Part shown: piece by piece, positions 9,918 through 22,415 of the stretch
Position numbering within the stretch: position 1 is the stretch's first letter
Layout of the letters: the number at the start of each line of letters is the position of its first letter
Translations under genes and position numbers: made by a program
Assembly (NCBI GenBank): GCA_029907705.1
Contig: JARYLJ010000004.1
Coordinates: 4,893 to 68,892, forward strand
Direction: 5' to 3'
DNA: 64,000 nucleotides
Source of the DNA: Methanomicrobiales archaeon
GTDB taxonomy: Archaea > Halobacteriota > Methanomicrobia > Methanomicrobiales > JACTUA01
The notes under the pieces: generated by a model
What the model was told of the DNA's origin: nothing
What the model saw: the letters and a program-made list of their open reading frames with translations, nothing else
Databases searched by the model: none

Positions 9918-10306
9918 ACCTCACACGTACGCGATCTCCTGTAATAAACCACCATTATCTGATGAGAGAGGAGAACTCTATGCCCCCTCCTCACCGTTGC
10001 CGCGCCGTTCAGGGGATCAGGATCAGGCCATCGGTTGCTCCCATGCGTGATCCGGAGTCATACCATCATCATTGCAGTGTCCCCACGAATCCTTCCGCCA
10101 TTCTCTCTCGATTCGGATGACCGGAGCAAGATTACCGCGAGCGCTGCAGGGGGCGCCGTCCAACCCGGCACTTTCCATTCGGGCTCCGATTGGATTTCCC
10201 GTGCTGCTTCTCTGCGGAATGCCGGCACTGCCATCCCCGCTTCAGGTGGCAACGATTAATTATCATGGCGTACATGAACCACAGGTAGGATCAGGTGGGT
10301 GGAAGT

Positions 10307-11566
10307 GTGAACGGTACCCTGCTCGAACGGGCAAGATCGGGCGCGGGAGACGAGGCGATACGAGCCGTTGCGAGGAGCGAGGGGGTGCGGCCGGAGCTGC
10401 TTCGAAAGCAGGTCGCGTCCGGGCGTGCGGTCATCGTGCAGCGCGAGGGAAAGAGGCCAGTCGGAATCGGAGAAGGACTGAGAACTAAAATCAATGCCAA
10501 CATCGGGACCTCCACGGCATCGATCGATCCCGAAGAGGAGGTGAGGAAGGCGAACATCGCAGAGGAGTTGGGCGCGGACACCATCACCGACCTCTCCATG
10601 GGCGGCCCCATCGACGAGATCCGTGCCATGATACTGGAGGCGACCGGTATTCCGCTGACGACTGTTCCCATGTACCAGGCGGTCGTGGAGGCAGGCTCCA
10701 TCAAAAATGTGACCGTTGATCGCCTCATCGGGACGGTTCGAAGGCATGTCCGGGAGGGGATATCTCTCGTCGTGGTCCATGCCGGCTTCACGCTCGGAAT
10801 GCTCCGGGAGCTCGCCTCCGCAGGAAGGGTGATGGGCATGGTCTCCAGAGGTGGCTGTTTCACCGCCGCATGGATGCTGCTGCACAGGAAGGAAAACCCG
10901 TTTATCTCCAGGTTCGATGATATCTGCGAAATTCTGGCAGATAATGACGCAGTGCTATCCCTGGGGAACCCGATGAGGAGCGGCTGCATTCACGATTCCA
11001 TGGATCGGCCGCAGGAGGGGGAGATCGCACTGAATGCAGCGCTTGCCAGGAGAGCGAACGATCACGGCGTACAGGTGATCGTCGAGGGGGCGGGCGGCCA
11101 TGTGCATCCAGCACGGATTCCGGAATATATCGCACATTACAAGCAGAAGACGGATGGGAGGCCCCTGTTCGTCGCCGGTCCCCTTCCCACAGACATCAGC
11201 GCGGGGTACGACCACATCGCAGCCTGCGTGGGGGGTGCGCTCGCCGCCGGAGCGGGTGCCGATTATCTCTGTTATATCACACCTTCGGAACACCTCGCTC
11301 TCCCGAATGCGAAGCAGGTGAGGGAAGGTGTGGTGGCATGCAGGATTGCCGCCCATATCGGGGACACCATGAAGTACGGGCTCAGGGAAGGGGACCGGAT
11401 GATGGCGGTGCAGAGGAGGGCGAGGAACTGGGAGGAGCAGTTCAGGCTCGCGATCGACGGGGGGAGGGCGAGAGAGATACACCGGCAGGACAACACGCCG
11501 GGGTGCTCCATGTGCGGGAATTACTGCGCACTCGAGATCATGGAGAGGTTCGTGCACGAATTTTGA
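10307..11566 (+). CDS. ThiC/Bza-family radical SAM enzyme (phosphomethylpyrimidine synthase or 5-hydroxybenzimidazole synthase paralog)
   Basis: TKINANIGTS, GADTITDLS, TVPMYQA, SRGG, GYDHI, YITPSEHL, C-terminal CSMCGNYC. Start GTG 10307 after aggtgg (alternative 10295). Confidence 0.85.
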   Translation: MNGTLLERARSGAGDEAIRAVARSEGVRPELLRKQVASGRAVIVQREGKRPVGIGEGLRTKINANIGTSTASIDPEEEVRKANIAEELGADTITDLSMGGPIDEIRAMILEATGIPLTTVPMYQAVVEAGSIKNVTVDRLIGTVRRHVREGISLVVVHAGFTLGMLRELASAGRVMGMVSRGGCFTAAWMLLHRKENPFISRFDDICEILADNDAVLSLGNPMRSGCIHDSMDRPQEGEIALNAALARRANDHGVQVIVEGAGGHVHPARIPEYIAHYKQKTDGRPLFVAGPLPTDISAGYDHIAACVGGALAAGAGADYLCYITPSEHLALPNAKQVREGVVACRIAAHIGDTMKYGLREGDRMMAVQRRARNWEEQFRLAIDGGRAREIHRQDNTPGCSMCGNYCALEIMERFVHEF

Positions 11567-11578
11567 ACTGCGGAGACC

Positions 11579-12421
11579 TCAACCCGCCAGTTCCCGCACC
11601 TTTGCGATGTTCCCCTTGTCATCGCGCCTCGAATCGACCGGAGTTTCGCATATGAGTGGCAGGGTACGTAGATGCCTGTCCGCGAGGATGCGGCGGAAAC
11701 CCTCCTCCCCGATCCTGCCCATGCCGATGTGCTCGTGGCGGTCGAGACCGCTGCCGCATTCACCCACCGAGTCGTTCAGATGGATCACCTTCAACCTCTC
11801 CAGACCGAACTTCTCGTCGAACTCCCCGAGCACCTGCCCGATACCCCCCTCGGATGCGATGTCCATGCCTGCGGCGAAGGCGTGGCAGGTGTCGAAGCAT
11901 ATCCCGATCCGTTCCTGTCCTCCGATCCCATCGAATACCGCCTGTATCTCCCCGATCGAGGATCCGACGCTGTTCTTCTCACCTGCTGTGTTCTCGAGGA
12001 GGAGGATCACGTCGTTCTTTGCTCTCTCCAGCGCGGTGTCGATCGCACCGCAGACCCTCCGCTGCCCCGCCTCCAGGCCGGCACCCATGTGGTGCCCCAG
12101 ATGCGTGACGAGATAGGGTATGCCCAGGAGTGCACACCTCTCGAGTTCTGCGGCGAGGGTCATGACCGATTTTTCATATATCTCATCCCTGGGGGAGGCG
12201 AGGTTCGGAAGGTAGGGCATGTGATCCACCGGGGGGTAGGTCTTCGAATCCCTCAGTGCCTCCCTGAACCGCTCCGCCTCCTCCTCCGGGATCGGTTTGA
12301 ACGACCATCCGCGCGGGTTCCTGGAGAAGATCTGGAACGTGTCGCACCCCGCCGCCTTCGCCCTCTCCACCGATAGCGATATCGACCCCGCGATGGAGAC
12401 GTGGACCCCCACTCTCACCAT
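11579..12421 (-). CDS. nfo: Endonuclease IV (AP endonuclease)
   Basis: GVHVSIAG, QIFSRNPR, HMPYLPNLAS, LENTAG, CFDTCH, HLNDS, DRHEHIG, ETP. Start moved to ATG 12421. Confidence 0.95.
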   Translation of the reverse strand: MVRVGVHVSIAGSISLSVERAKAAGCDTFQIFSRNPRGWSFKPIPEEEAERFREALRDSKTYPPVDHMPYLPNLASPRDEIYEKSVMTLAAELERCALLGIPYLVTHLGHHMGAGLEAGQRRVCGAIDTALERAKNDVILLLENTAGEKNSVGSSIGEIQAVFDGIGGQERIGICFDTCHAFAAGMDIASEGGIGQVLGEFDEKFGLERLKVIHLNDSVGECGSGLDRHEHIGMGRIGEEGFRRILADRHLRTLPLICETPVDSRRDDKGNIAKVRELAG

Positions 12422-12446: not shown

Positions 12447-13424
12447 TCAAGTACGCCCTTCGATCCGTTGGCGCAGGAGGGAGAGGAGTGCGTCCCCGAA
12501 CTCCCTCGTCGTGGCGGTGCCACCGAGGTCCGGTGTCATGACTCCCTGCGAGAAGATCTCCTGGATCGCGCTCTCCACTTCCTGCACCGCCGTACTCCGG
12601 CCCAGGTACGCGGCGAGCATCGCGGCACTCCTCACTGCCGCCACCGGGTTCGCGATCCCCTTTCCCGCGATGTCAGGCGCGCTGCCGTGCACGGGTTCGA
12701 AGAGCGCGTGGCGATCGCCGATATTTGCGCTCGGAAGCATGCCGAGTCCGCCCACGAGATATGCGGCCACATCCGAGAGGATATCCCCGAAGAGGTTCGT
12801 AGTCACGATCACGTCGTACCTCTCCGGGTGCATCAGGATATCGAGGCAGAGGGCATCGATGAAGCACTCCTTCACCCTGACTCCTGCCTCTCTCGCGACA
12901 TCGATGCAGATGTTCCTGAAGAAGAGGCACGACCTGAGGACGTTTGCCTTATGGCCGATGGTCAGGTGCCCACCTCTCTTTACGAGACCACATGCGAAGC
13001 GTGCGATCCGCTCGCTCCCCCTGCGCGTGATCACGCGATGTGTGACCGCACAGTCTTCCGAGATCTCCTCGATGCCTGAATAGAGCCCTTCCGTGTTCTC
13101 CCTCACAATTGAGATATCGAAGCCCCTCCCTCTGACGGGCCTCAGGTTTGCATAGAGGTCGAGCTCCTTCCTGATGCGGACGATGACACTCGCATACTCC
13201 TTTGAAGGAGGTGTGGTCACTGCCCCGAAGAGGATGGCATCCGCCCGCCTCATCTCATCCAGGTCCCCGTCGGTGATCGCATGACCGCTCCTCTCCCATC
13301 GCGCACATCCCACCTCGAGGTCGAAGGTCTCTGCATCGGGCAGAAGTACCTGCAGCACCTCTCTGGCGACAGGGATCACCTCGCAACCGATACCGTCCCC
13401 CTCCACGACGGCCACCCGTCTCAT
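12447..13424 (-). CDS. aksF: Isocitrate/isopropylmalate dehydrogenase family, probable homoisocitrate dehydrogenase
   Basis: GDGIG.EV, RENTEGLY, HKANV, NLFGDILSD, EPVHGSAPDIAG; operon context with aksA/D/E (leuB not excluded). Confidence 0.8.
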   Translation of the reverse strand: MRRVAVVEGDGIGCEVIPVAREVLQVLLPDAETFDLEVGCARWERSGHAITDGDLDEMRRADAILFGAVTTPPSKEYASVIVRIRKELDLYANLRPVRGRGFDISIVRENTEGLYSGIEEISEDCAVTHRVITRRGSERIARFACGLVKRGGHLTIGHKANVLRSCLFFRNICIDVAREAGVRVKECFIDALCLDILMHPERYDVIVTTNLFGDILSDVAAYLVGGLGMLPSANIGDRHALFEPVHGSAPDIAGKGIANPVAAVRSAAMLAAYLGRSTAVQEVESAIQEIFSQGVMTPDLGGTATTREFGDALLSLLRQRIEGRT

Positions 13425-14221
13425 GCACTCCTCCACTGTCTGCAGAGCTCATGGACCGCATGTGCGATTCTCATCGGCGGAGCGGCCCAGTGCACCACGG
13501 CACCCAGCATACCGTTGCGTCTCCCGATACCCTCCCGCTCGCTCCTGCAGCAGCGAGCGATGAAGGGCTCCTGGTTCACGTGATCGAGCGGACAGATGTT
13601 CTCCAGCACGAAGTCATCCCCGTAGCATTCCCTGTACAGTTCTGCGCCTGTCCTGCAGCCGGCGATCCTCTCTCCTCCCTGCATCGGATCGGAGTCGAGG
13701 GTGCGGGGGAAACCTCCCGCCCTGCAGGGGTACACATCCGCCCCAATCGACGAGATGTCGTGCAGGTGATGGATGAACCGGACATCCAGTTCACCGAAGA
13801 TGCCGCAGGCCTCCAGTCCGAGTATGGCTGCCGAGAGGCTCGGTGCCGGCGGGGTGACATCGAAGACATGGACGGTCAGAAATTGATCCGGGTCCGGGTC
13901 CAGAACGAACGTGATGTGTTCGTCTTCACCTCGGAAGATGGTGCAGCGGGTTTCGGACTCCATCGCGCGGGATACGAGGCCCCATCGGTCGTGAAGGCAT
14001 ACCTTTTCCGGGTACCAGCTCACCTCCTCCGGTGAGGCGATCGACTCTGCACGAACCACAACCCTCATGAGCCCCTTCCCTTCCCCGTCGGGCGTTATGC
14101 GGAGAAGTTCGTGCCCCTCTCCTGCAGCGCGAATGAGGTACCTCGTCAGGAAATACACCCTGTCCCCGCAGGGCCTCGACCTCGAGTAACCGACCTCCTT
14201 GCACTCGCGGGGGAAGATCAC
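13421..14221 (-). CDS. Cys-rich conserved hypothetical protein
   Basis: Start GTG 14221 (MIFPRECKEVG) overlaps the upstream TGA; stop overlaps downstream ATG; about 12 Cys including YPCR, AGC, ICP, RCCR. Confidence 0.75.
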   Translation of the reverse strand: MIFPRECKEVGYSRSRPCGDRVYFLTRYLIRAAGEGHELLRITPDGEGKGLMRVVVRAESIASPEEVSWYPEKVCLHDRWGLVSRAMESETRCTIFRGEDEHITFVLDPDPDQFLTVHVFDVTPPAPSLSAAILGLEACGIFGELDVRFIHHLHDISSIGADVYPCRAGGFPRTLDSDPMQGGERIAGCRTGAELYRECYGDDFVLENICPLDHVNQEPFIARCCRSEREGIGRRNGMLGAVVHWAAPPMRIAHAVHELCRQWRSA

Positions 14222-14688
14222 CGCCGGCACCTCCAGAGTTCCACCAGACCCCCGGCGAGGAGTATCTCGAGCATTCTGGGTGAGAGCGGTCTGCTCCGGT
14301 ACATATTGCCCTCGATGCTGACGCGACCCTCCCCCAGATCGATTCTCACATGCGCCCCCTCCGTGCAACCGCATTCGCACTCCAGGAGCGGTAAACCGAT
14401 GTTTATCGCATTTCTGAAGAATATACGGCCGAAAGAGGGTGCGATGACCGCAACTACGCCCGCCTCTTTCAATGCGATCGCCGCCTGCTCGCGGGAGGAG
14501 CCGCAGCCGAAGTTCTTTCCGGCGACGATGATCGCACCCTTCAGCCTCTTCGCCAGTGCGGGATCGAGATCCTCGAAGGCGCGGGACGCCCAGAGCCCCC
14601 GGTCCTTCGTCCTCAGATACCTGCCGGCGATGATCAGATCAGTATCCACATCCTCCCCCAGGCAGATCGCAGTGCCTTCAAGCCTCAT
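14218..14688 (-). CDS. aksE: Homoaconitase/3-isopropylmalate dehydratase small subunit
   Basis: DVDTDLII.GRYLRT, AGKNFGCGSSREQA, FGRIFFRNAINIGLP. The YLRT loop is the homoaconitase-type signature. Start ATG 14688. Confidence 0.85.
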   Translation of the reverse strand: MRLEGTAICLGEDVDTDLIIAGRYLRTKDRGLWASRAFEDLDPALAKRLKGAIIVAGKNFGCGSSREQAAIALKEAGVVAVIAPSFGRIFFRNAINIGLPLLECECGCTEGAHVRIDLGEGRVSIEGNMYRSRPLSPRMLEILLAGGLVELWRCRR

Positions 14689-15898
14689 CCAGCACCTCAG
14701 GCGGTGCGATCTCACCCTTAACCGCAGAAGCGGCGGCCGTGGATACAGATGCGAGGTAGACCTCGCCGCCGATCCCCATGCGGTTCGTGAAGTTCCTGTT
14801 CGCGGTCGACAGGCAGACCTCACCCTCTCCGAGCACGCCCATATGTGCGCCCAGGCAGGGGCCGCACCCGGGGGGCGCGATGGTGCAGCCTGCACGCAGC
14901 AGCTCCTCAACGATACCCGCCTTCACGGACGCGAGGAGCACTGCCCTGGACGCCGGCACGACGATCGTCCTCACCATCACCTTTCTCCCCTTCAACCCCC
15001 GTGCAAGACGCTCCATGTCGCTGAACCTCCCGTTCGTGCAGGTCCCGACGAAGACCTGATCGATAGGAATGCCCTGGAGTTCCTCGACCCGCCTCACCCG
15101 ATCCACACGGGGCGGAACCGCTACGAGAGGGGAGATGGCAGAGAGATCGATGTCGACGGACCCGGCGCAGCGACAGGGTTCGGGCTCCTGCAGCTCTGCC
15201 TCCAGACCCCGCTCCTTCAGATATCGTGCGGTAATCCCGTCTGCATAGAACATCCCTGCCTTCGCCCCGGTCTCGACCGCGAGGTTGCAGATGGTGAGCC
15301 TGTCGTCCATTCCGAGGTCAGGAACTGCTTCGCCCCTGAATTCGAGCGCTCTGTATATGGCGCCGTCCATGCCGAGCCTGCTCAGGTAGCAGAGGGCGGC
15401 ATCCTTCGCCTCCGCATGGTCGGATAACGCCCCTTCGAAAAAGATCTGAATCGTCTCCGGCACACGGAACCAGGTGGCGCCTTCCGCCCAGATCGCGGCC
15501 ATATCGCTCGCGCCCATGCCGGTGGCGAAGGCGCCGAATGCACCGAGCGTGCAGGTATGCGAATCCGCACCCACCACGATCTCCCCCGGCAGAACGCCCC
15601 TCTCCGCCATCAGCTGATGGCTGATGCCTCCGCCCACGTCAGAGAAGTTCAGGCCCCTCTCTGTGGCGAAGATGCGCAGTTCGCGCTGGAGTGTGGAGGT
15701 CGTGCTGTTGTTCGCAGGAGCGATGTGATCGAAGAAGATCGATACTCTTTCAGGGTATCGCAGCGGCGGTGATCCCATCGCCTTCCAGACCTCGAGCGTC
15801 AGCACACCGGTGCCATCATGGACGTAGGCGCGATCCACCTCCCTGTCGACGTAACTCCCCTCCGCTCCTGCGAGGATCCTCTCGGAGAGCGAGCTCAC
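14678..15898 (-). CDS. aksD: Homoaconitase/3-isopropylmalate dehydratase large subunit
   Basis: HDGT, DH, GADSHTCT.GA, GTCTNGR, CGPCLG, STANRNF. Confidence 0.85.
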   Translation of the reverse strand: MSSLSERILAGAEGSYVDREVDRAYVHDGTGVLTLEVWKAMGSPPLRYPERVSIFFDHIAPANNSTTSTLQRELRIFATERGLNFSDVGGGISHQLMAERGVLPGEIVVGADSHTCTLGAFGAFATGMGASDMAAIWAEGATWFRVPETIQIFFEGALSDHAEAKDAALCYLSRLGMDGAIYRALEFRGEAVPDLGMDDRLTICNLAVETGAKAGMFYADGITARYLKERGLEAELQEPEPCRCAGSVDIDLSAISPLVAVPPRVDRVRRVEELQGIPIDQVFVGTCTNGRFSDMERLARGLKGRKVMVRTIVVPASRAVLLASVKAGIVEELLRAGCTIAPPGCGPCLGAHMGVLGEGEVCLSTANRNFTNRMGIGGEVYLASVSTAAASAVKGEIAPPEVLDEA

Positions 15899-17025
15899 GA
15901 GGGGGCCCCCTCGGTCACCAGTTTGATCATGTCGACGAGGATCTCGTCCGTCAGCTCGGCCTTCTTCTCACCGCGATCCTTCACCAGCTCCAGCACGCGG
16001 CAGACCTGCTCCTCCGGGAGCTGGTAACCGAGCCTCGCAAGCTCGTGCTCGAGTGCCTTCTTGCCCGTATGTTTGCCCAGAATGAACCGACGTTCGCCGC
16101 CGACGAGTGAGGGCGGGAAAACCTCGTAGGTCTCCGGATCTTCGAGTATCGCGGCGATATGGATGCCGCTCTCGTGCCTGAATGCGTTCTCTCCAACCAC
16201 GGGTTTCAGGATATCCACCTCGACACCAGAATAATGCATGACCATCCTCGAGAGCTCTGTCAGAAGGGCCAGTTTGTATCTTTTCACCCCGCCCTTCAGA
16301 TACAGGGCGACGAGCACCTCCTCGAGCGCCGCATTCCCCGCACGCTCGCCGATACCGTTCACCGTCGTATGGAGCTGGAACGCCCCTGCCTGGGCAGCGG
16401 CGATCGTGTTCGCACTCGCAAATCCCAGATCGTTATGGCAATGTGCGCAGAGCGGGGTCCTGAAGATGGAGATGAGCCTCTCCATGATGCCGTGCATCTC
16501 GATGGGCGTCAGGAAGCCCACGGTATCTGCGAAGGAGAGGTAGTCTGCCCTGTGCTCCTCTGCACCACGGTAGACATCCGTCAGGAACGAGAAGTCCGTG
16601 CGGGAGGCATCCTCCGCCGCGAACCTTACCTGCAGTCCATGCTCCTTTGCCAGATCCACCATCTCCAGCGACTCCGCGAGCACCTGCTCCCTCGGTTTTC
16701 GGTACTTGTGCCTGATGTGCAGGTCCGAGGTGGCGATGAAAATGCTCACCATGTCCACATCGCAATCAACGGCCGCCTCGATATCTGCCCTCCTCGCCCT
16801 CGCGAGTGCGCAGACTCGTGCATCCATATCCATATGCGCGATCGCGCTGACGCACCGTTTCTCGTAGGGGGAGACGATCGGGAAGCCGGCCTCGATCACC
16901 TCCACTCCGATCTCGTCCAGCATCTCGGCGATTCTCACCTTCTCCTCGCAGGAGAAGGAGACTCCCGGCGTCTGCTCACCATCGCGAAGCGTTACATCGC
17001 AGATCTCAACATTCCACTCTTTCAT
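15895..17025 (-). CDS. aksA: Homocitrate synthase family protein (no C-terminal regulatory domain)
   Basis: [45 protein letters not shown]; 376 aa, lacks the LeuA/CimA allosteric domain. Start ATG 17025. Confidence 0.88.
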
Positions 17026-18274
17026 GCTCCTCACCCTCCGGGCACACACCCTCCACCACGAGAAGGTGCGGCTCACCCGTCATCCTCAACGCCTTTTCTA
17101 GCGATCTCGTATCTTCGGCCTTGTGCACCTCGGGCTCCGCCCAGCTGACATACTTCAGGGGATCGAAGACCCGGTGGCCCCCGGTCATCCCCATCCGCAT
17201 GTTCTTCATCACGATGCAGAGCAGGGGCAGCCTCTTCTCATATACATCGATCAGCGCATTTATACCCGAGTGGAGCAGGGCATAATCCCCGACAAGCGCG
17301 ACCCGGGTCGAACGCGCCGCCACCGCGATGGAGCTGCCCAGGCCGTAGCCACAGACTCCGCATCCGAAAGGAGGGTTCGCCGCCAGTATCGCGCACCCCA
17401 TGTCGCATATGGCGACGAGCCCCTTCTCCCTCATCATCCTGAAGAGGGCCCTGTAGGGGCAGCTCGGACAGATCGTACGGCAATAACCCCTGCTGGCGAA
17501 GGTCTCCGGCAGTTTCCTCAGCTTCGGGGGCTCGAGCGTGAGGTGCTCTCTGACGAACGGCCTTCCGTACTCGTTAATCACCACGCCATGCGGGAGCGGC
17601 GGAGGTGGATAGACGGTGATCAGGTGGGAGGTCCCATGCGCCGGCCCCACGCCGATGCTGCCGCCCCGTATCCGGTTCAGCCGCGAGAGCTGGCTCCACT
17701 GGAAGAGTTCCTGCAGCAGAAGGTCGGCCCTCTCCGCCCTGCCCCTCATCGTCAGGTTCGGATCCGCCCTGCTCCCCCTCTGCTCCTGCCGGGTGCAGGA
17801 GGAGTCAGGCACCTCGCTCTCCAGAAGGGGCGGGGTCAGTCGGAGTATCGCCACCCTCGAGAAGCTCTCCGAGGCCTCAAAGGCAGAGGCGACGCTGCTT
17901 CCGCAGGTCTCCCGGTCCGGCTCGAGCACGGGCACCTGCGCGAGTTCTCCGAAGTAGCGGGAGTCCTCTGCCACGGTCGTGCCCTTCGCACCGGGATCGT
18001 CGCCGCTCACGATCACCACGCCGGAGACGAGGCCCATGGAAGTTGCATGCACGAGTGGATCCGTGCAGGCGTTCAGGCCGACATTCTTCATGATGACCGC
18101 TGCCCTTCTTTCGGCGAGGGAGTCCCCGAGTGCATACTCCAGCGCCACCTTCTCGTTAATCACCGGCTCTGCGTCGAGCAGTTCGATCAGTCCGTTCACC
18201 GGATAACCGGGCACACCGTAGAAGCGGTCAGCGCAGATGCGCAGGGCTGCGGCGATCGCCTTCTCGCCGTTCAT
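17006..18274 (-). CDS. Thiamine-pyrophosphate-dependent enzyme, IorA (indolepyruvate oxidoreductase alpha)-like, lacking the ferredoxin domain
   Basis: [54 protein letters not shown]. Start ATG 18274 overlaps the upstream stop. Confidence 0.82.
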
Positions 18275-19242
18275 GTGTCCCTCCCGGGCACGAGGTCGCA
18301 ACCCGTGCATGCGATGCACATCGTCCTCGCCACCTTCGTATCGAGCCCGGCACGTTTCAGCACCCGTTCCTCCATCCCCGCGACATCGAGGAGCCTCGCT
18401 GCCGCGGGTCTCCGCAGGGCAGGGAGTGACGGCACCGGATTCAGTGGCCTGCATACCGGGATGACACCCGCATCCGCCAGCCCCTCGATGATCTCCTCCA
18501 GTTCGGCATCCGTCTCCCCGAGGCCGATGATGACATTCGAGAAGACATGGTTCTCCCCGAAGAGCTCCACCGACCTTTCGAGTACCCTCCAGATCTCCTG
18601 CCTTCTGAGACCGGGACACATCTCTTCGAAGAGCCTCTCCGAGGCGGTCTCCACGTTGAACTTCACCTCCACGACGCCGAGTTCATGAAGATGGAGGGGT
18701 GTCTCCGGACGCGGGTAGATCGAGACGCCGACGGGGAGTCCGAGAGGTCTGAGGAGCCTGAGGAGGGCGAGCGTCCGCTCTTCGTCCTTCTCGATGCTCT
18801 CCGCCACACCGCTCGTGACCGATATCGCGTCCACACGGTCGAGCACGCTCTTTACGCTCTCCACGATCTGCACAGGAGGTTTGATCTCGCCCTTCAGGCG
18901 GTGGACCATGCAGTACCGGCACCTGTAGATGCAACGCTCGCTCAGCGTGATGTACGCCTGGCGTGGACAGTGGAGCCCCACCGGCTCCAGCACACCGCTG
19001 TATATATGGCCATCGATGATTACTGCCGCCTCCCCGTTGCCCAGGTAACGCAGGGTTACTGGACTCCTGCGATTCATACCGAGTCTGACACGCCGCCCTC
19101 CCATGGAGAAGAAGATGGACCCGGAACCTCCTGCCCCCGGACCGGCGGTCGATCTGCCGATGCACGCCACAGGGATGGGCTCCCCCTCCACCCTCACCGC
19201 ACCCGCCTGGAGGAGTTGTGCCTTCAGTGCGATCCATTCCAT
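18271..19242 (-). CDS. Radical SAM protein, biotin synthase-related
   Basis: CIYRCRYC (CxxxCxxC), TSG, NVET, IIGLGET, extra C-terminal CIACTGCD. Confidence 0.88.
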   Translation of the reverse strand: MEWIALKAQLLQAGAVRVEGEPIPVACIGRSTAGPGAGGSGSIFFSMGGRRVRLGMNRRSPVTLRYLGNGEAAVIIDGHIYSGVLEPVGLHCPRQAYITLSERCIYRCRYCMVHRLKGEIKPPVQIVESVKSVLDRVDAISVTSGVAESIEKDEERTLALLRLLRPLGLPVGVSIYPRPETPLHLHELGVVEVKFNVETASERLFEEMCPGLRRQEIWRVLERSVELFGENHVFSNVIIGLGETDAELEEIIEGLADAGVIPVCRPLNPVPSLPALRRPAAARLLDVAGMEERVLKRAGLDTKVARTMCIACTGCDLVPGRDT

Positions 19243-20162
19243 AGAGAGAGCGCCTCTGTGTAGTTGCAGTAGAAAGGAATGGCCGCGATCGCCCCGATAA
19301 TTCCCTTTCCATCCATCTCGATGGAGAGATCACTGCCTCCCGCGTCCTCCAGTGCCTGCAGGGAGACGTACCCACGCTTCGCTTTCCTCGCGAATCCGAG
19401 AATTGGAGACGGGTCGAAGCCCCTGAAGACCGCCATGCCGGTCTTCGGCGAGAGGGTGTACTTCTCGAGGAGGCGCCGGTACAAACGGACAAGGCGTTCG
19501 GGTTCCGTGGTGGCGAACTCGCAGACTGTGCTGACGCAGTTCTTCGTTTTTTCAGGTACGGGGAAGAGCTGCACGATCGTATGGGATATATAGCGCGTCG
19601 CATCGTCCTCCACCGCTCTCCCGATATTGTGCGCCAGCGTCCAGGTGGCGCCCGCTTCCGGCGTGTCCGTGTCGTCGACGCCTATGAGTACCCTCTCCCT
19701 CCTCGGAACCCAGATCTCCGCGCCGGCGAGCCTGCTCCCCCCGGCAGGATCGCAGACGGCACGGAGCACCCCCCTTGCATTTGCACGGCAGATGCTCGCA
19801 CCCACGCCTCCTCCGCCCATGCCGATGTACGAGACATGGATCTCCTGTGCCCCCACCTCGACGCCCGAGATGCCGGCGGGAAAGCTGGAGCTGGCGAGCC
19901 CGAGCTCCGCCTTTCCTGTCACGAGCAGATAGCGCATCGCATTGCCGATATTCCTCACGCTTTTCACGAGGGGGCTCTTTCTGTAATGGTGCCCTGACCA
20001 CATCGCCCCACCGATGCAGTCGAACTGCTCGATCAGCTCCACCTTCGTTCCGTTTCGGTCCGCGATGGCGATGATCTCGGGGTACGTGATGCTGTACGGA
20101 TCATCCGTCTGGAGATCTCTTGCCTCCTGTTCATCTGCCCGTCTGTATACAGGTGCAGTCAT
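19224..20162 (-). CDS. mmp11: Methanogenesis marker protein 11 (C-terminal TiaS/DUF1743-like domain)
   Basis: DPY.I.Y, ELIEQFDCIGGAMW..HHY, GMGGGGVGA..CR, IGVDDTD, H.IVQL.P....KT.NC, G.KGIIGAIAA. Confidence 0.85.
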   Translation of the reverse strand: MTAPVYRRADEQEARDLQTDDPYSITYPEIIAIADRNGTKVELIEQFDCIGGAMWSGHHYRKSPLVKSVRNIGNAMRYLLVTGKAELGLASSSFPAGISGVEVGAQEIHVSYIGMGGGGVGASICRANARGVLRAVCDPAGGSRLAGAEIWVPRRERVLIGVDDTDTPEAGATWTLAHNIGRAVEDDATRYISHTIVQLFPVPEKTKNCVSTVCEFATTEPERLVRLYRRLLEKYTLSPKTGMAVFRGFDPSPILGFARKAKRGYVSLQALEDAGGSDLSIEMDGKGIIGAIAAIPFYCNYTEALSLWNGSH

Positions 20163-20195
20163 TTGTCCCTCGGCCCGCGATTCACAGCTGGATTA

Positions 20196-20214
20196 TTAAC
20201 GAAAATCTCGTTAA
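20196..20214. promoter_or_regulatory. Inverted repeat, candidate operator of the mmp11-aks operon
   Basis: TTAACGA-aaatc-TCGTTAA between a TATA-like element (ttatatat, 20239-20246) and the mmp11 start. Confidence 0.4.
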
Positions 20215-21003
20215 CAAAAATGTCGGCAATACCATCTCTTATATATTTCCATACCACCCCTCCAGCAAAAATCTCTAAACAAATCTCCTTTTACGATCGG
20301 ATTGATGAAATAGAGGACGGTTTTCGTCTGCGAGCACCGTAACACGATCGTCCGATGGCCATCCAAAAGAATCCGACATCTCCCCGATAAGGAATCGCTC
20401 GATACATACCATCGTGGAAGAATGCTCCATATGACCTCGCTCCGCCCGTATACGCCGCTATGGCGCCCTGTTTGTGGTCCTCTCCCTCTCAATACATCGG
20501 AGGTCCGGACGGTGATCCCGCACGGTACATGAAACGAAGGGGCAGGAACCCGTTCAGAGAGTCACCGGTACGCAGTGCGGTGCCGCCTTGGGGATACTTC
20601 GATCGTTCGTCCGCTGCTCTATCGATCGTTCCTATCGGGGGGATGAATCCTTTTCACCGGGAGGAAAGAAACGTAATTTTGCTGGATCCGTTACGAAGCC
20701 CGAATATTCAAACGTATCCGATTCGGACTCGTGGTGGCGTCGTGATGATGGGGGGATAGAGGTGTTTCTGATCCCGTATGAAGGGTGAGGGTGGAGGGAG
20801 TTTATTCTTCGAAATCCGTATCGATTGCTCTGGCATTTCGATACCGATACGCGACAGGATCGAAGCATCGGGCTCTGCACCAGATCAACGCGGTTTTACC
20901 GCTCCCCGTATGCGGCCCCCCATCGGAATGGCATTCGATGGATCGCCATCAATGGAAACCCACGAGGGCGGACTATCCGTATGCCGGAAAAAAAATTTCA
21001 GGT

Positions 21004-21927
21004 TCAGAAGAGTTCGTGGAGCCTGAACTGGTGGGGCCCCAGTTTTCCTCCATAGTTCCCTGCACTGATCACCCTGACCCCCGGCACCTTCGTCGCCGCG
21101 AGGATACCGACCTTCATCGCCTTCTTGATGGACTCTGCATCCAGCCCATCGATCACGATCTCGTATATCGCCTTCACACCGTCCGGCACTTTGCTATGCG
21201 GAACCTTTGCCTTCAGGGTCGGGCAGTACAGTTCATTGGTGCTCGCAGGAAGCGCCTTGTATTTGTTGCTCCCCACCTTGGAACCGCTGGAAACGATACC
21301 TCCCGGAAACGGCAGGATCACATTCCGGACATCATTTATCGCCTCCACTGCCGCCTGTGCGCCCATGAGCGCAGCCATCTGCCCCTCCCCCATGACGAAG
21401 AAGTTGCCGCCTGCGATCCCCTTCACCGCACCGAACTCCTCCTCGCCGATGTACTCGCCTCCCATGATCGGTATCGCGAAGACCTTTCTTCCGCCCACCT
21501 CGCGTCTCTCCTGAAAACCGTCGCCGAAGAAGTTCATCTTCACAGGCACACGGAGGGCTGCCTGTGGCAGGCCGTCGAAGACCGCCGTCGTGGGTGCCGT
21601 GAGAATGCACTCCCCGATACGCTCGATCAGGACATGCTTCACCTTCTCCTTCACGACCTCGTCCGCATTCTCGCCCTTCTTTACCCGCACCCCGACGCAG
21701 AAGAGCACCGCGACACCCGGTCTGCCGTCCGGGGTCTCCTCCCCCGTCAGGTACGCCTCAATGCCCGCTTCGCAGGGGCACCCGATGGCCGAGGTGGCAA
21801 AACCTGTTGCCTCCAGCGCGGCCTTCTCCGCCCATCCACGGGTGACTCCTGTGATGATCACCCGACAAATCCACGTGGGGAACGCCTCTGCATATGTGTC
21901 GTCGATCAGAACACCATTGATCTCCAT
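21004..21927 (-). CDS. ftr: Formylmethanofuran-tetrahydromethanopterin formyltransferase
   Basis: MEINGV.IDDTYAEAF, GFATS.IGCPCEAG, TPDGRPG, PFPGGIVSSGSKVG, SAGNYGGKLG. Confidence 0.97.
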   Translation of the reverse strand: MEINGVLIDDTYAEAFPTWICRVIITGVTRGWAEKAALEATGFATSAIGCPCEAGIEAYLTGEETPDGRPGVAVLFCVGVRVKKGENADEVVKEKVKHVLIERIGECILTAPTTAVFDGLPQAALRVPVKMNFFGDGFQERREVGGRKVFAIPIMGGEYIGEEEFGAVKGIAGGNFFVMGEGQMAALMGAQAAVEAINDVRNVILPFPGGIVSSGSKVGSNKYKALPASTNELYCPTLKAKVPHSKVPDGVKAIYEIVIDGLDAESIKKAMKVGILAATKVPGVRVISAGNYGGKLGPHQFRLHELF

Positions 21928-22415
21928 CTGCACTCACTCCATTACGCAAGAATGTCAGTGGTGCGGGTGAATAATTTTACCATTTATTTTACCATTTCCT
22001 ACAGAATTTTCTGTTCAGAGGTGAGGGCAGGTGGTTCACGCCGCACAATCGCCATGCAGAAGAGGCACGGAACGTGGCATGTCCGGTCATTCGCCCGTGC
22101 GCAGTGCCACTGCCTACACAGGCAGTGAATTACAGGGGTGGGGAAGTACAGAGACCTTCGCATCACTTCTGTCGGTGCGCATCCGGTTCATTACCATATT
22201 TCAGAAACCTCCCCCAACGGGTCCATTCGCGAACGCCGATCCAGCCTCACTGAATGCCATTTTAGATCGATCCCCTCACCTGTTTTTAGACACATTGACA
22301 TATTAAAAAAATTAAATAAATATATTGTACAAATCATTTCAGAACCTTTATCAACCGTCCGGTTCCAGATTTTCTGTAATCGATTTTCTAATCGATGAAT
22401 CTGGTGCGTGATTGC

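Follow-up and report, generated by a model that had tools for sequence, protein, structure and literature searches.

The window analysed here, a stretch of 64,000 nucleotides (nt) from a Methanomicrobiales archaeon, carries an eight-gene operon in which four aks-type genes, almost certainly responsible for the carbon chain of coenzyme B (CoB), are combined with genes for methanogenesis marker protein 11 (mmp11), a protein of the radical S-adenosylmethionine (SAM) type, a thiamine pyrophosphate (TPP) enzyme and a cysteine-rich protein of the family DUF7714. [quoted passage not shown] Judging from sequence features and conservation, the element would be a translationally coupled operon, conserved across the Methanomicrobiales, that serves CoB biosynthesis, a reading whose chances we put at somewhat better than even. 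The window corresponds to contig C29 of a 1.79-Mb genome in 70 contigs (labelled G000). Within it, the eight genes lie head to tail on the minus strand, from 20162 to 12447, according to both the list of open reading frames (ORFs) and direct reading of the sequence. All seven junctions overlap, by 19, 4, 20, 4, 11, 4 and 4 nt from mmp11 to aksF in a scripted count, the 4-nt overlaps being of the ATGA/GTGA type and located at 18271, 15895, 14218 and 13421. Gene order, overlapping junctions and these four positions are exactly those described by an earlier analysis of the DNA, the sequence-only reading. The genes are the following:

20162..19224, minus strand: mmp11 (methanogenesis marker protein 11), 312 amino acids (aa); TIGR03280, Pfam TiaS_TCKD and TiaS_FLD
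19242..18271, minus strand: radical SAM protein, 323 aa; Pfam Radical_SAM
18274..17006, minus strand: IorA-like TPP enzyme, 422 aa; TPP_enzyme_C and a partial IOR_alpha match
17025..15895, minus strand: aksA-type short homocitrate/(R)-alkylmalate synthase, 376 aa; HMGL-like and HCS_D2 domains
15898..14678, minus strand: aksD/hacA-type homoaconitase large subunit, 406 aa; Aconitase, hacA_fam
14688..14218, minus strand: aksE/hacB-type homoaconitase small subunit, 156 aa; Aconitase_C, YLRT loop
14221..13421, minus strand: DUF7714 protein (Cys-rich), 266 aa; PF24830
13424..12447, minus strand: aksF-type homoisocitrate-family dehydrogenase, 325 aa; Iso_dh

The starts of aksA (17025) and aksE (14688) are the first ATG with a conserved N-terminus, longer GTG/TTG ORFs being present in both cases.

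AksADEF of Methanocaldococcus jannaschii make 2-oxosuberate, and the genes of the window have in common with AksA, AksD/AksE (HacAB) and AksF of that species the four protein families, the YLRT loop of the small subunit and the short AksA. They differ in their layout, as the aks genes of M. jannaschii, which we take to be dispersed, as is reported, contrast with a single overlapping operon that includes four further genes. The loop of the small subunit is said to set substrate specificity, following Jeyakanthan et al. in 2010. The best PDB match of aksE is 2pkp, annotated as 'Homoaconitase small subunit', with YLRT aligned to YLRT, whereas the small subunit 3vba of isopropylmalate isomerase (IPMI)/citramalate isomerase has YLVY at the loop and the genome's own small-subunit paralog has YLTF. 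A second set of leuC/leuD/leuB type is encoded on contig C39, and two LeuA/CimA-type synthase paralogs on C12 and C41; the latter are 503-505 aa long, as opposed to the 376 aa of the AksA of the window, a short form that lacks the C-terminal regulatory domain of the LeuA type. AksD, which has a paralog on C39, reaches 457 bits on hacA_fam (cut-off 386) and 395 bits on HacA_Meth against 378 on LEU2, and AksF reaches 391 bits on LEU3_arch, 314 on AksF2_Meth and 226 on leuB. The dehydrogenase of C39 exceeds the cut-off for 3-isopropylmalate dehydrogenase (429 versus 393 bits), and the aksF of the window scores better than this paralog on homoisocitrate-type models. On account of the YLRT loop, the separate Leu-type set and the short AksA, the aks-like genes are, as judged by sequence, Aks and not Leu.

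Conservation of the gene linkage

The linkage was followed in a phylum sample of 201 genomes, with families labelled f1, f2 and so on (f1-f6 being those of the taxonomic order of the window) and with Methanosarcina acetivorans and M. jannaschii as named controls; from it, 40 DUF7714 loci were fetched, belonging to ten families. A second collection comprised 80 named loci, from Methanoculleus, Methanoregula, Methanolinea, Methanogenium and metagenome-assembled genomes (MAGs), all of them Methanomicrobiales. In every one of the 40 fetched loci, across the ten families, DUF7714 adjoins an aksE homologue, and in most of them aksF is adjacent as well. The arrangements per family are:

Own taxonomic order (f1-f6), 16/16 loci: all eight genes in the order of the window
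f10, 6/6 loci: TPP enzyme, aksA (divergent), aksD, aksE, aksF, DUF7714
f14, 6/6 loci: order as in f10, with mmp11 within 10 kb in 5/6
f7, 9/9 loci: aksE adjoins DUF7714, with aksF nearby in 8/9
f24, 3/3 loci: aksE, DUF7714 and aksF only

Among the named loci, 62/80 show the full order and 16/80 are prefixes of this order that stop at contig ends, while 2/80 are without only the radical SAM match at a coverage of at least 50%. Since the same order is found in 16/16 loci of the taxonomic order and in 62/80 named loci, the eight-gene arrangement is not due to chance. Nor is the linkage unique to this genome, which the sequence-only reading had named as an outcome that would speak against its hypothesis. 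At the loop of the aksE genes located beside DUF7714, YLRT occurs in 36/40 and YLRS in 3/40 of the fetched loci, and YLRT in all 67 named loci in which the loop is covered.

From the perspective of gene content, the Pfam DUF7714 domain is present in 93/201 genomes, comprising every genome of nine families and 23/24 of one further family, and M. acetivorans was matched among the controls; the remaining sixteen families of the sample gave no match in any genome. A profile of TPP enzyme orthologues (alignment A2) gives matches of at least 392 bits, or two half-matches in the case of three genomes, only in the ten DUF7714 families, the next-best match being one of 277 bits in f19 and IorA proteins, including the genome's own, reaching at most 254 bits. 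In-frame TAG/TGA codons were flagged in four of the TPP orthologues; for that of locus L022, the TAG was taken as a true stop read through by the profile, as the stop-free high-scoring segment pair ends 12 nt before the reported end of the match. In one genome of the same taxonomic order (G189, f4), mmp11 and DUF7714 lie approximately 1 kb apart (C55:2075-5623) and no orthologue-level TPP match was found among the accessible bases of the genome. The TPP enzyme and DUF7714, which had been grouped with the aks genes from the sequence alone, thus have a phyletic pattern in common and remain linked on the DNA with those genes.

The position of mmp11 was determined in 20 loci fetched from other families. 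It adjoins the IorA-like TPP gene in 6/6 f7 loci and 2/2 f24 loci, with overlaps between both genes of 1-22 nt in the three of these loci that were mapped by ORFs. A second, divergent mmp11-like gene (approximately 31-33% identical) is located directly upstream of mmp11 in 59/80 named loci (for example, L004:2870-3634); no orthologue of it was found in the genome of the window, where the best matches are mmp11 itself and a weaker one on C45.

The DUF7714 protein and the TPP enzyme

The DUF7714 protein matches PF24830 with 276.5 bits over model positions 1-280 of 280 (gathering threshold 25). Its score on the XcbA family model (NF052538) is 57.2 bits, below the cut-off of 150 and spread across the whole length of the protein; other DUF7714 proteins reach 78-83 bits on this model and true XcbA-family proteins 278-439. 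A tblastn search against plasmids retrieved two proteins, with 25-27% identity over 86-92% of the query, encoded by pMYCCH.01 of Mycolicibacterium chubuense NBB4 and by a plasmid of Methylocystis iwaonis. Both exceed the XcbA cut-off (439 and 278 bits, respectively), and each of their genes is situated between a phosphosulfolactate synthase gene and genes for proteins of two kinds, the adenylosuccinate-lyase family and the pyridoxal-phosphate-enzyme type, which is the layout of an xcb-type cluster for coenzyme M (CoM). The alignment of the DUF7714 profile with the NBB4 protein by hhalign has a probability of 99.5 and an E-value of 1.2e-22 over 234 columns, and the five cysteines that are invariant in 49 DUF7714 sequences (C166, C189, C210, C224 and C225) are all kept in both XcbA-family proteins. 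By these criteria of sequence comparison, DUF7714 is a full-length homologue and a sister family of XcbA. The parts of the XcbA study considered here describe this protein as carrying a [2Fe-2S] cluster, as reducing sulfoethanethioaldehyde to give CoM and as homologous to no known protein (PMC9457059).

Apart from full-length homology and the five invariant cysteines, DUF7714 has in common with XcbA of Xanthobacter autotrophicus Py2 (NF052538) its location in an operon for a small thiol cofactor of CoM/CoB chemistry. The two differ in their neighbours, which are aks genes in one case and xcbB-E in the other, in sequence (25-28% identity) and in the proposed substrate, which for DUF7714 would be a C7 carboxylate thioaldehyde in place of sulfoethanethioaldehyde. 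DUF7714 is therefore regarded as a candidate thioaldehyde (7-thioxoheptanoate) reductase that may catalyse the thiol-forming step. What had been noticed from the sequence alone as a Cys-rich metal or sulfur protein has turned out, through the hhalign alignment and the five cysteines, to be homologous to a known thiol-forming reductase. The AlphaFold2 (AF2) model of the protein has a mean predicted local distance difference test (pLDDT) value of 92. Foldseek searches of this model against the PDB gave nothing at an E-value of 1e-3 or below, and VIA-align gave generic Rossmann-like matches for residues 114-266, with a best Z of 7.9 (HypD, with a Z of 5.9, is not significant). In the Atlas there is no usable match for DUF7714, the Atlas's own model being poor. 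For neither mmp11 nor DUF7714 did a search for gene fusions bring up longer relatives, which is weak evidence.

The TPP enzyme is a relative of IorA. It has a pyrimidine-binding and a TPP-binding domain, and alignment A2 shows three cysteines to be invariant (C269, C272 and C294) and a CP motif to be conserved at the C-terminus. Two blocks, which include the CxxC...GC stretch, are 38% and 29% identical between the enzyme and the IorA of the same genome. The cysteines are taken here to be the ligands of one putative [4Fe-4S] cluster; a cysteine pattern for one such cluster is known from 2-oxoacid:ferredoxin oxidoreductases. Both cofactor-binding domains and the CxxC...GC motif are thus common to IorA, the 2-oxoacid:ferredoxin oxidoreductases and the enzyme of the operon. 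In contrast to IorA, the latter reaches only 134 bits, in two stretches, on the IOR_alpha model TIGR03336 (cut-off 650.9), while a separate, true IorA elsewhere in the genome reaches 643 bits, and the middle region is shorter; in the Methanomicrobiales, the shortening of this region leads to a protein of 422 aa, versus approximately 500 aa elsewhere. No ferredoxin domain (Fer4) was detected in it by Pfam; its neighbours in the Atlas resemble IorA, but the Atlas clusters of the query are without Fer4, as opposed to the IorA clusters. Sequence searches against the PDB with the single sequence and with the profile yielded nothing beyond the general TPP-binding motif seen in enzymes that resemble oxalyl-CoA decarboxylase. 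A predicted complex of the TPP enzyme with mmp11 has a score of 0.00, which has no bearing for or against binding. Pyruvate:ferredoxin oxidoreductase from Pyrococcus also releases acetaldehyde, and the TPP enzyme of the operon is a candidate for a 2-oxosuberate decarboxylase.

An independent arrangement, found by scanning metagenomes with divergent mmp11 sequences as queries, bears on this assignment. Three Methanomethylicia-like contigs (L231:632-6103, L246:6503-12124 and L258:6576-12107), and in part a fourth (L251), carry a cluster of hacA, hacB (with a YLRS loop), a TPP enzyme of the acetolactate synthase (ALS) superfamily, mmp11 and a flavin adenine dinucleotide (FAD)/GMC-like oxidoreductase. 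Of the junctions in L258, three are overlaps (4, 4 and 14 nt) and one is a gap of 34 nt. The mmp11 of this contig shares 86% identity with a protein that belongs to a 90%-identity cluster in which one member is named Candidatus Methanosuratincola. HacA of these contigs reaches 529 bits on HacA_Meth versus 462 on LEU2. The ALS-type enzyme, of 528-563 aa, has the N, M and C domains of its superfamily and 387-403 bits on ALS models whose cut-offs are at least 538; an assignment as ilvB was provisionally rejected on the basis of these scores and of its position between hacB (YLRS) and mmp11. Partial copies of the arrangement are seen in L244, where an incomplete ALS-type TPP gene is directly upstream of mmp11, and in L239, where the FAD oxidoreductase is directly downstream.

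Thus, a TPP-dependent 2-oxoacid enzyme is located between homoaconitase and mmp11 in two phyla, and it comes from two TPP families. In our reading, this is a non-orthologous displacement of one function, for which decarboxylation of 2-oxosuberate is the most economical candidate, and the Methanomethylicia-like set may represent an alternative set for the late steps of CoB synthesis. That the IorA-like TPP enzyme and DUF7714 act after 2-oxosuberate is considered fairly probable.

mmp11, its radical SAM partner and competing explanations

The mmp11 protein scores 320.2 bits on TIGR03280 (cut-off 255.8). Its N-terminal part of approximately 155 aa has no known fold, and its C-terminal half is a TCKD kinase domain of the type found in TiaS, the tRNA(Ile2) agmatidine synthetase, as had been proposed from the sequence alone and as Pfam, Foldseek and the motif confirm. 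The AF2 model (pLDDT 90) has nine Foldseek matches at an E-value of 1e-3 or below, all of them TiaS and over the C-terminal half; that to 3amt has an E-value of 2e-8 and a root-mean-square deviation of 2.7 A over 150 columns. The invariant GxDDTD...GATW of mmp11 aligns with the motif of the P. furiosus TiaS fragment 3u02. Although the kinase fold and the GxDDTD...T motif are common to both proteins, the TCKD domain of mmp11 starts at approximately residue 159, after an unrelated N-terminal domain, while that of TiaS is N-terminal. Pfam detects only TCKD and a partial FLD in mmp11, whose 312 aa leave no room for the OB and zinc-ribbon RNA-binding domains that TiaS adds, in chains of 402-420 aa. 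In TiaS chemistry, ATP is used to phosphorylate a carbonyl oxygen, a nucleophilic substitution follows, and a threonine is autophosphorylated. A true TiaS-like match is located elsewhere in the genome, on C45.

The radical SAM protein has an N-terminal GPGAGG domain, a CxxxCxxC motif (C104, C108 and C111) and a C-terminal CxxCxxC motif (C309, C312 and C315); both cysteine triads are invariant in alignment A6, with the cluster motif covered by 22 sequences. It reaches 58 bits on PF04055 (threshold 29.5), and its NCBIfam matches (variant_rSAM, LipS2 and MSMEG_0568) are all weak and below the cut-offs. The sulfur-inserting enzymes LipS2, LipA and BioB are its best, though weak, relatives: the lipoyl and biotin synthase models give 57.9 and 27.8 bits, far below cut-offs of 270 and 310, and the best PDB sequence matches are biotin synthase 8vcw and lipoyl synthase 5exi, with E-values of approximately 4e-4. 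It differs from them in having its own N-terminal domain and the C-terminal triad, which could hold an auxiliary cluster. The gene is present in one copy in 9/10 other genomes, in two copies in G009 (f14) and in three in the genome of the window, whose two additional paralogs (40-44% identity; G000 C22:3425-4417 and C39:18465-19430) are found in different settings: one is approximately 2.5 kb upstream of leuCDB-type genes, while the second is flanked by nadA and a hydrogenase-like gene, with a cysteine desulfurase gene nearby. Regarding the MSMEG_0568 family, which the protein of the operon matches weakly, the Methylocystis plasmid locus (L142) pairs a radical SAM protein of this family with a protein resembling aminoimidazole ribonucleotide (AIR) synthase, and an AIR-synthase-related (PurM-like) gene precedes the pair of radical SAM and mmp11 genes in a locus from f16 (L055:11831-12778).

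The surroundings of the operon comprise these features:

12421..11579, minus strand: nfo (endonuclease IV), 263 bits on TIGR00587 versus a cut-off of 130
20163..21003, no strand: intergenic region between mmp11 and ftr, 841 nt, with a G+C content below that of the operon and A/T-rich stretches
21933..21004, minus strand: ftr, the next gene upstream of mmp11

Beyond ftr, the plus strand encodes an fwdF-like gene, hdrCBA, mvhD, fwdDBAC and mcrBDCGA, and so the placement of the operon beside ftr and the Hdr/Mcr cluster in the sequence-only reading is borne out. The G+C content is 0.556 at 20001-22000 versus 0.62-0.63 within the operon, and the intergenic region is likely to contain the putative operon promoter. 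At the other end, nfo starts 25 nt past aksF, is preceded by a GGAGGAGG motif and is found downstream of aksF in 42/80 named loci; it is the probable ninth gene of the transcript, by its position. Just past nfo, at 10295-11566 on the plus strand of the window, the radical SAM-type enzyme for thiamine, ThiC (phosphomethylpyrimidine synthase), is encoded near an operon with a TPP enzyme, perhaps by coincidence.

Several observations weigh against assigning the operon as a whole to CoB, and most of them concern mmp11. It exceeds its cut-off in 102/201 genomes, with mcrA present in 110/201; it is found without mcrA in five genomes that are 94-99% complete (G047, G057, G065 and G073 from f8, and G059 from f17), and no match over the cut-off was found in 19 mcrA-positive genomes (five from f12, twelve from f15 and two from f20). 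The name of the family at JGI is 'imperfect marker', and mmp11 is also over its cut-off in a MAG named Undinarchaeales, which is a member of a 90%-identity cluster. In 4/4 loci of f10 (L047-L050), mmp11 is the last gene of a tightly packed, same-strand group of ycaO, tfuA, a hycI-like gene and mmp11, and the same cluster, with a hycI-like protease, is seen in the metagenome contig L257; in L057, L232 and L233, the pair of mmp11 and radical SAM genes is convergent with tfuA-ycaO; and in L056, mmp11 is approximately 850 nt upstream of mcrB. Finally, in AT-rich contigs (G+C 0.26-0.41), which are probably those of class I methanogens, mmp11 follows ribH and is located 0.6-3.7 kb downstream of leuCDB-type genes. 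The loops of the latter are of the IPMI type (YLIY in 16, YLVL in 11, YLTL in one and no match in three), and the YLIY/YLVL loops ruled out that these LeuCDB-like genes are Aks. The lumazine synthase gene ribH is close upstream of mmp11 in these contigs, being adjacent in L201:9570-9992 and L208:9566-9991 and found at L180:8018-8437 in a third case. As for the other proteins, the TPP enzyme keeps the cysteine pattern of ferredoxin oxidoreductases, which points to oxidative chemistry. No DUF7714 match was found in the M. jannaschii control, although mmp11 and mcrA were matched there, and DUF7714 and an orthologue-level TPP enzyme are found in 0/25 mcrA-positive genomes of f8, f12, f15, f16 and f20. 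We know of no accepted CoB step, along the route attributed to White (1989, 1994), that calls for a radical SAM enzyme, and the role of this protein in CoB synthesis suggested by the sequence-only reading is not upheld. The parts considered here of a 2025 paper propose MMP16 and/or L-ASST for CoB (PMC12068725).

The strongest alternative arising from these observations is that only the four aks genes serve CoB, and that mmp11 and the radical SAM protein form a separate module for the maturation or modification of MCR, or for other thiol or sulfur chemistry, brought next to the aks genes by the clustering of methanogenesis genes. The pair is conserved on its own in 5/5 f8 loci, where both genes, the second having the architecture of its counterpart in the window, are adjacent and often overlapping, as well as in L055 (f16) and nine metagenome loci; it lies beside ycaO-tfuA, presumably the genes for the thioglycine of McrA, in eight loci, and next to mcrB in L056, and the operon of the window itself borders ftr and the hdr-fwd-mcr genes. 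This explanation is nevertheless considered rather unlikely, since mmp11 overlaps or abuts the TPP gene in families f7 and f24 and in part of f14, and since in the Methanomethylicia-like contigs it directly adjoins the gene of a TPP enzyme from another family, placed after hacAB; a role specific to MCR is further countered by the five genomes that have mmp11 without mcrA. In 4 of the 5 f8 loci a thioredoxin-reductase-like gene accompanies the pair, and in mcrA-less f8 genomes (L052, L053, L054 and L060) the overlapping mmp11 and radical SAM genes are beside this thioredoxin reductase (TrxR)-like FAD protein; such organisms may make another thiol or carry a relic module. Of what the sequence-only reading had said of mmp11, the coupling to TPP enzymes holds for two families in two phyla, and the restriction to methanogens fails on the five mcrA-less genomes. 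On balance, participation of mmp11 in CoB synthesis is given somewhat less than an even chance.

A second alternative, regarded as quite improbable, is that DUF7714 acts in CoM and not in CoB synthesis, reducing sulfoethanethioaldehyde in methanogens that lack the ComABC route. It would account for the homology to XcbA with all five cysteines and for the presence of DUF7714 in the ten core methanogen families of the phylum and in M. acetivorans, but not in M. jannaschii, as the parts of a review considered here state that CoM routes differ between these groups (PMC3087415). It is opposed by the location of DUF7714 beside aksE in 40/40 loci, where it is never beside com genes, and by the part of the 2025 paper considered here, which describes MMP16 as the main CoM synthase in M. 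acetivorans (PMC12068725).

Slightly less probable still is a third alternative, in which the TPP enzyme would not be a decarboxylase for CoB but an oxidative 2-oxosuberate:ferredoxin oxidoreductase that forms a pimeloyl thioester, for example for biotin. The CxxC...C...C pattern common with IorA and the finding, attributed to White, that pimelate in methanogens reportedly derives from 2-oxosuberate agree with it. However, the searches detected no ferredoxin domain in it, and among the genes of the operon none of the IorB type was seen; the phyletic pattern of the TPP enzyme is that of DUF7714, its gene is translationally coupled to mmp11, and in the Methanomethylicia-like contigs it is replaced by a decarboxylase-like enzyme of the ALS type. 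The last alternative, that the aks-like genes encode enzymes for leucine/isoleucine and that the operon is unrelated to CoB, which the sequence-only reading had raised against itself, has in its favour that AksD and AksE are below the equivalog cut-offs of NCBIfam models trained on Methanococcales, on which the Leu paralogs score alike, and is dismissed as having hardly any probability, given the YLRT loop, the complete second Leu-type set (with LeuB over its cut-off and long LeuA/CimA) and the short AksA.

Late steps of coenzyme B synthesis

The pathway of CoB is described as still unknown in the parts considered here of the 2025 PLoS Genetics paper (PMC12068725), and the literature searched agrees with the sequence-only reading in describing the late steps as being without assigned genes. 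In this literature, supplementary files aside, no function was found for mmp11 or DUF7714, nor any link between DUF7714 and XcbA, nor any gene for late CoB steps; the parts considered of a 2026 paper on MMP4 make no mention of MMP11. The families themselves are already catalogued (TIGR03280, DUF7714, Radical_SAM and IorA-like clusters), and many public genomes contain the operon. Section 14.5 of a review (PMC3087415) lists the steps of elongation together with a semialdehyde intermediate.

The operon can be set against the later steps as follows. The work of White (1989, 1994) reportedly established a non-oxidative decarboxylation to 7-oxoheptanoate, the introduction of the thiol from sulfide, an ATP-dependent ligation of threonine and a phosphorylation. 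By analogy with the M. jannaschii orthologues, AksA, AksD/E and AksF would elongate 2-oxoglutarate to 2-oxosuberate, which the IorA-like TPP enzyme, as a putative Fe-S protein and an oxidoreductase relative that would have lost the electron-transfer and CoA modules, would decarboxylate to 7-oxoheptanoate. After thiolation of the latter with sulfide, the XcbA-like, putative Fe-S protein DUF7714 would reduce the resulting thioaldehyde to 7-mercaptoheptanoate. The proposed part of mmp11 is to activate a carbonyl at the expense of ATP, for which there are two options: it may phosphorylate the aldehyde-sulfide adduct and thereby drive the formation of the thioaldehyde, or it may activate the carboxylate for the ligation of threonine and/or phosphorylate threonine. 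The first option would explain the coupling of mmp11 to a decarboxylase and a reductase, the latter being DUF7714, the FAD oxidoreductase or, in f8, the TrxR-like protein. The radical SAM protein enters the scheme only as the conserved partner of mmp11. While gene identity, homology, synteny and phyletic patterns are matters of observation, the substrates and reactions of the four non-Aks proteins are all inferred. Taken as a whole, this mechanism for the late steps is held to be modestly probable.

The scheme has a chemical parallel in ComF/MMP16 and L-ASST (COG1900), for which the proposed type of reaction is the same, with an aldehyde, sulfide and a reductant giving a thiol, although these proteins belong to families unrelated to those of the operon and none of them is encoded in it. 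Its generality is limited, as the absence of DUF7714 from M. jannaschii and of DUF7714 and the TPP enzyme from the 25 mcrA-positive genomes indicates that they are not universal late-step enzymes. None of the 16 LeuD/HacB-type genes found in nine of those 25 genomes and in one mcrA-less f8 genome has YLRT or YLRS, and the f8, f12, f15, f16 and f20 lineages may lack the 2-oxosuberate route altogether. The pathway proposed in the sequence-only reading thus survives in part, in that linkage supports a late step for the TPP enzyme and DUF7714, which are not universal enzymes. Its pairing of four genes with four late steps was overstated, as nothing shows full coverage, and it is unlikely that the eight genes cover the whole CoB pathway.

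A bolder version, in which the late half of CoB synthesis proceeds by chemistry new to archaea, is speculative and, in our estimation, improbable; it would combine a plain 2-oxosuberate decarboxylase in the form of a TPP enzyme descended from an oxidoreductase, a YcaO-like activation of the carbonyl for exchange of oxygen by sulfur through mmp11 and the radical SAM protein, and a reductase of the XcbA type. If true, the thioaldehyde reductases of CoM synthesis in bacteria and of CoB synthesis in archaea would have a common ancestor, and lineages would swap parts of the pathway: Methanomethylicia would use an ALS-type decarboxylase together with an FAD reductase, and mcrA-less genomes a reductase of the TrxR-like kind.

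The operon and its relatives provide four concrete candidates that can be tested genetically, the tractable M. acetivorans having both DUF7714 and mmp11, and they connect an archaeal domain, DUF7714, with the only thioaldehyde reductase that has been characterised. With assigned genes, CoB could be produced heterologously for the expression of MCR, metabolic models of methanogens and anaerobic methanotrophic archaea (ANME) would improve, and new targets for methane mitigation would become available. As the candidates are not universal, either the synthesis of CoB differs in version between lineages or several mcr-bearing lineages depend on CoB from outside.

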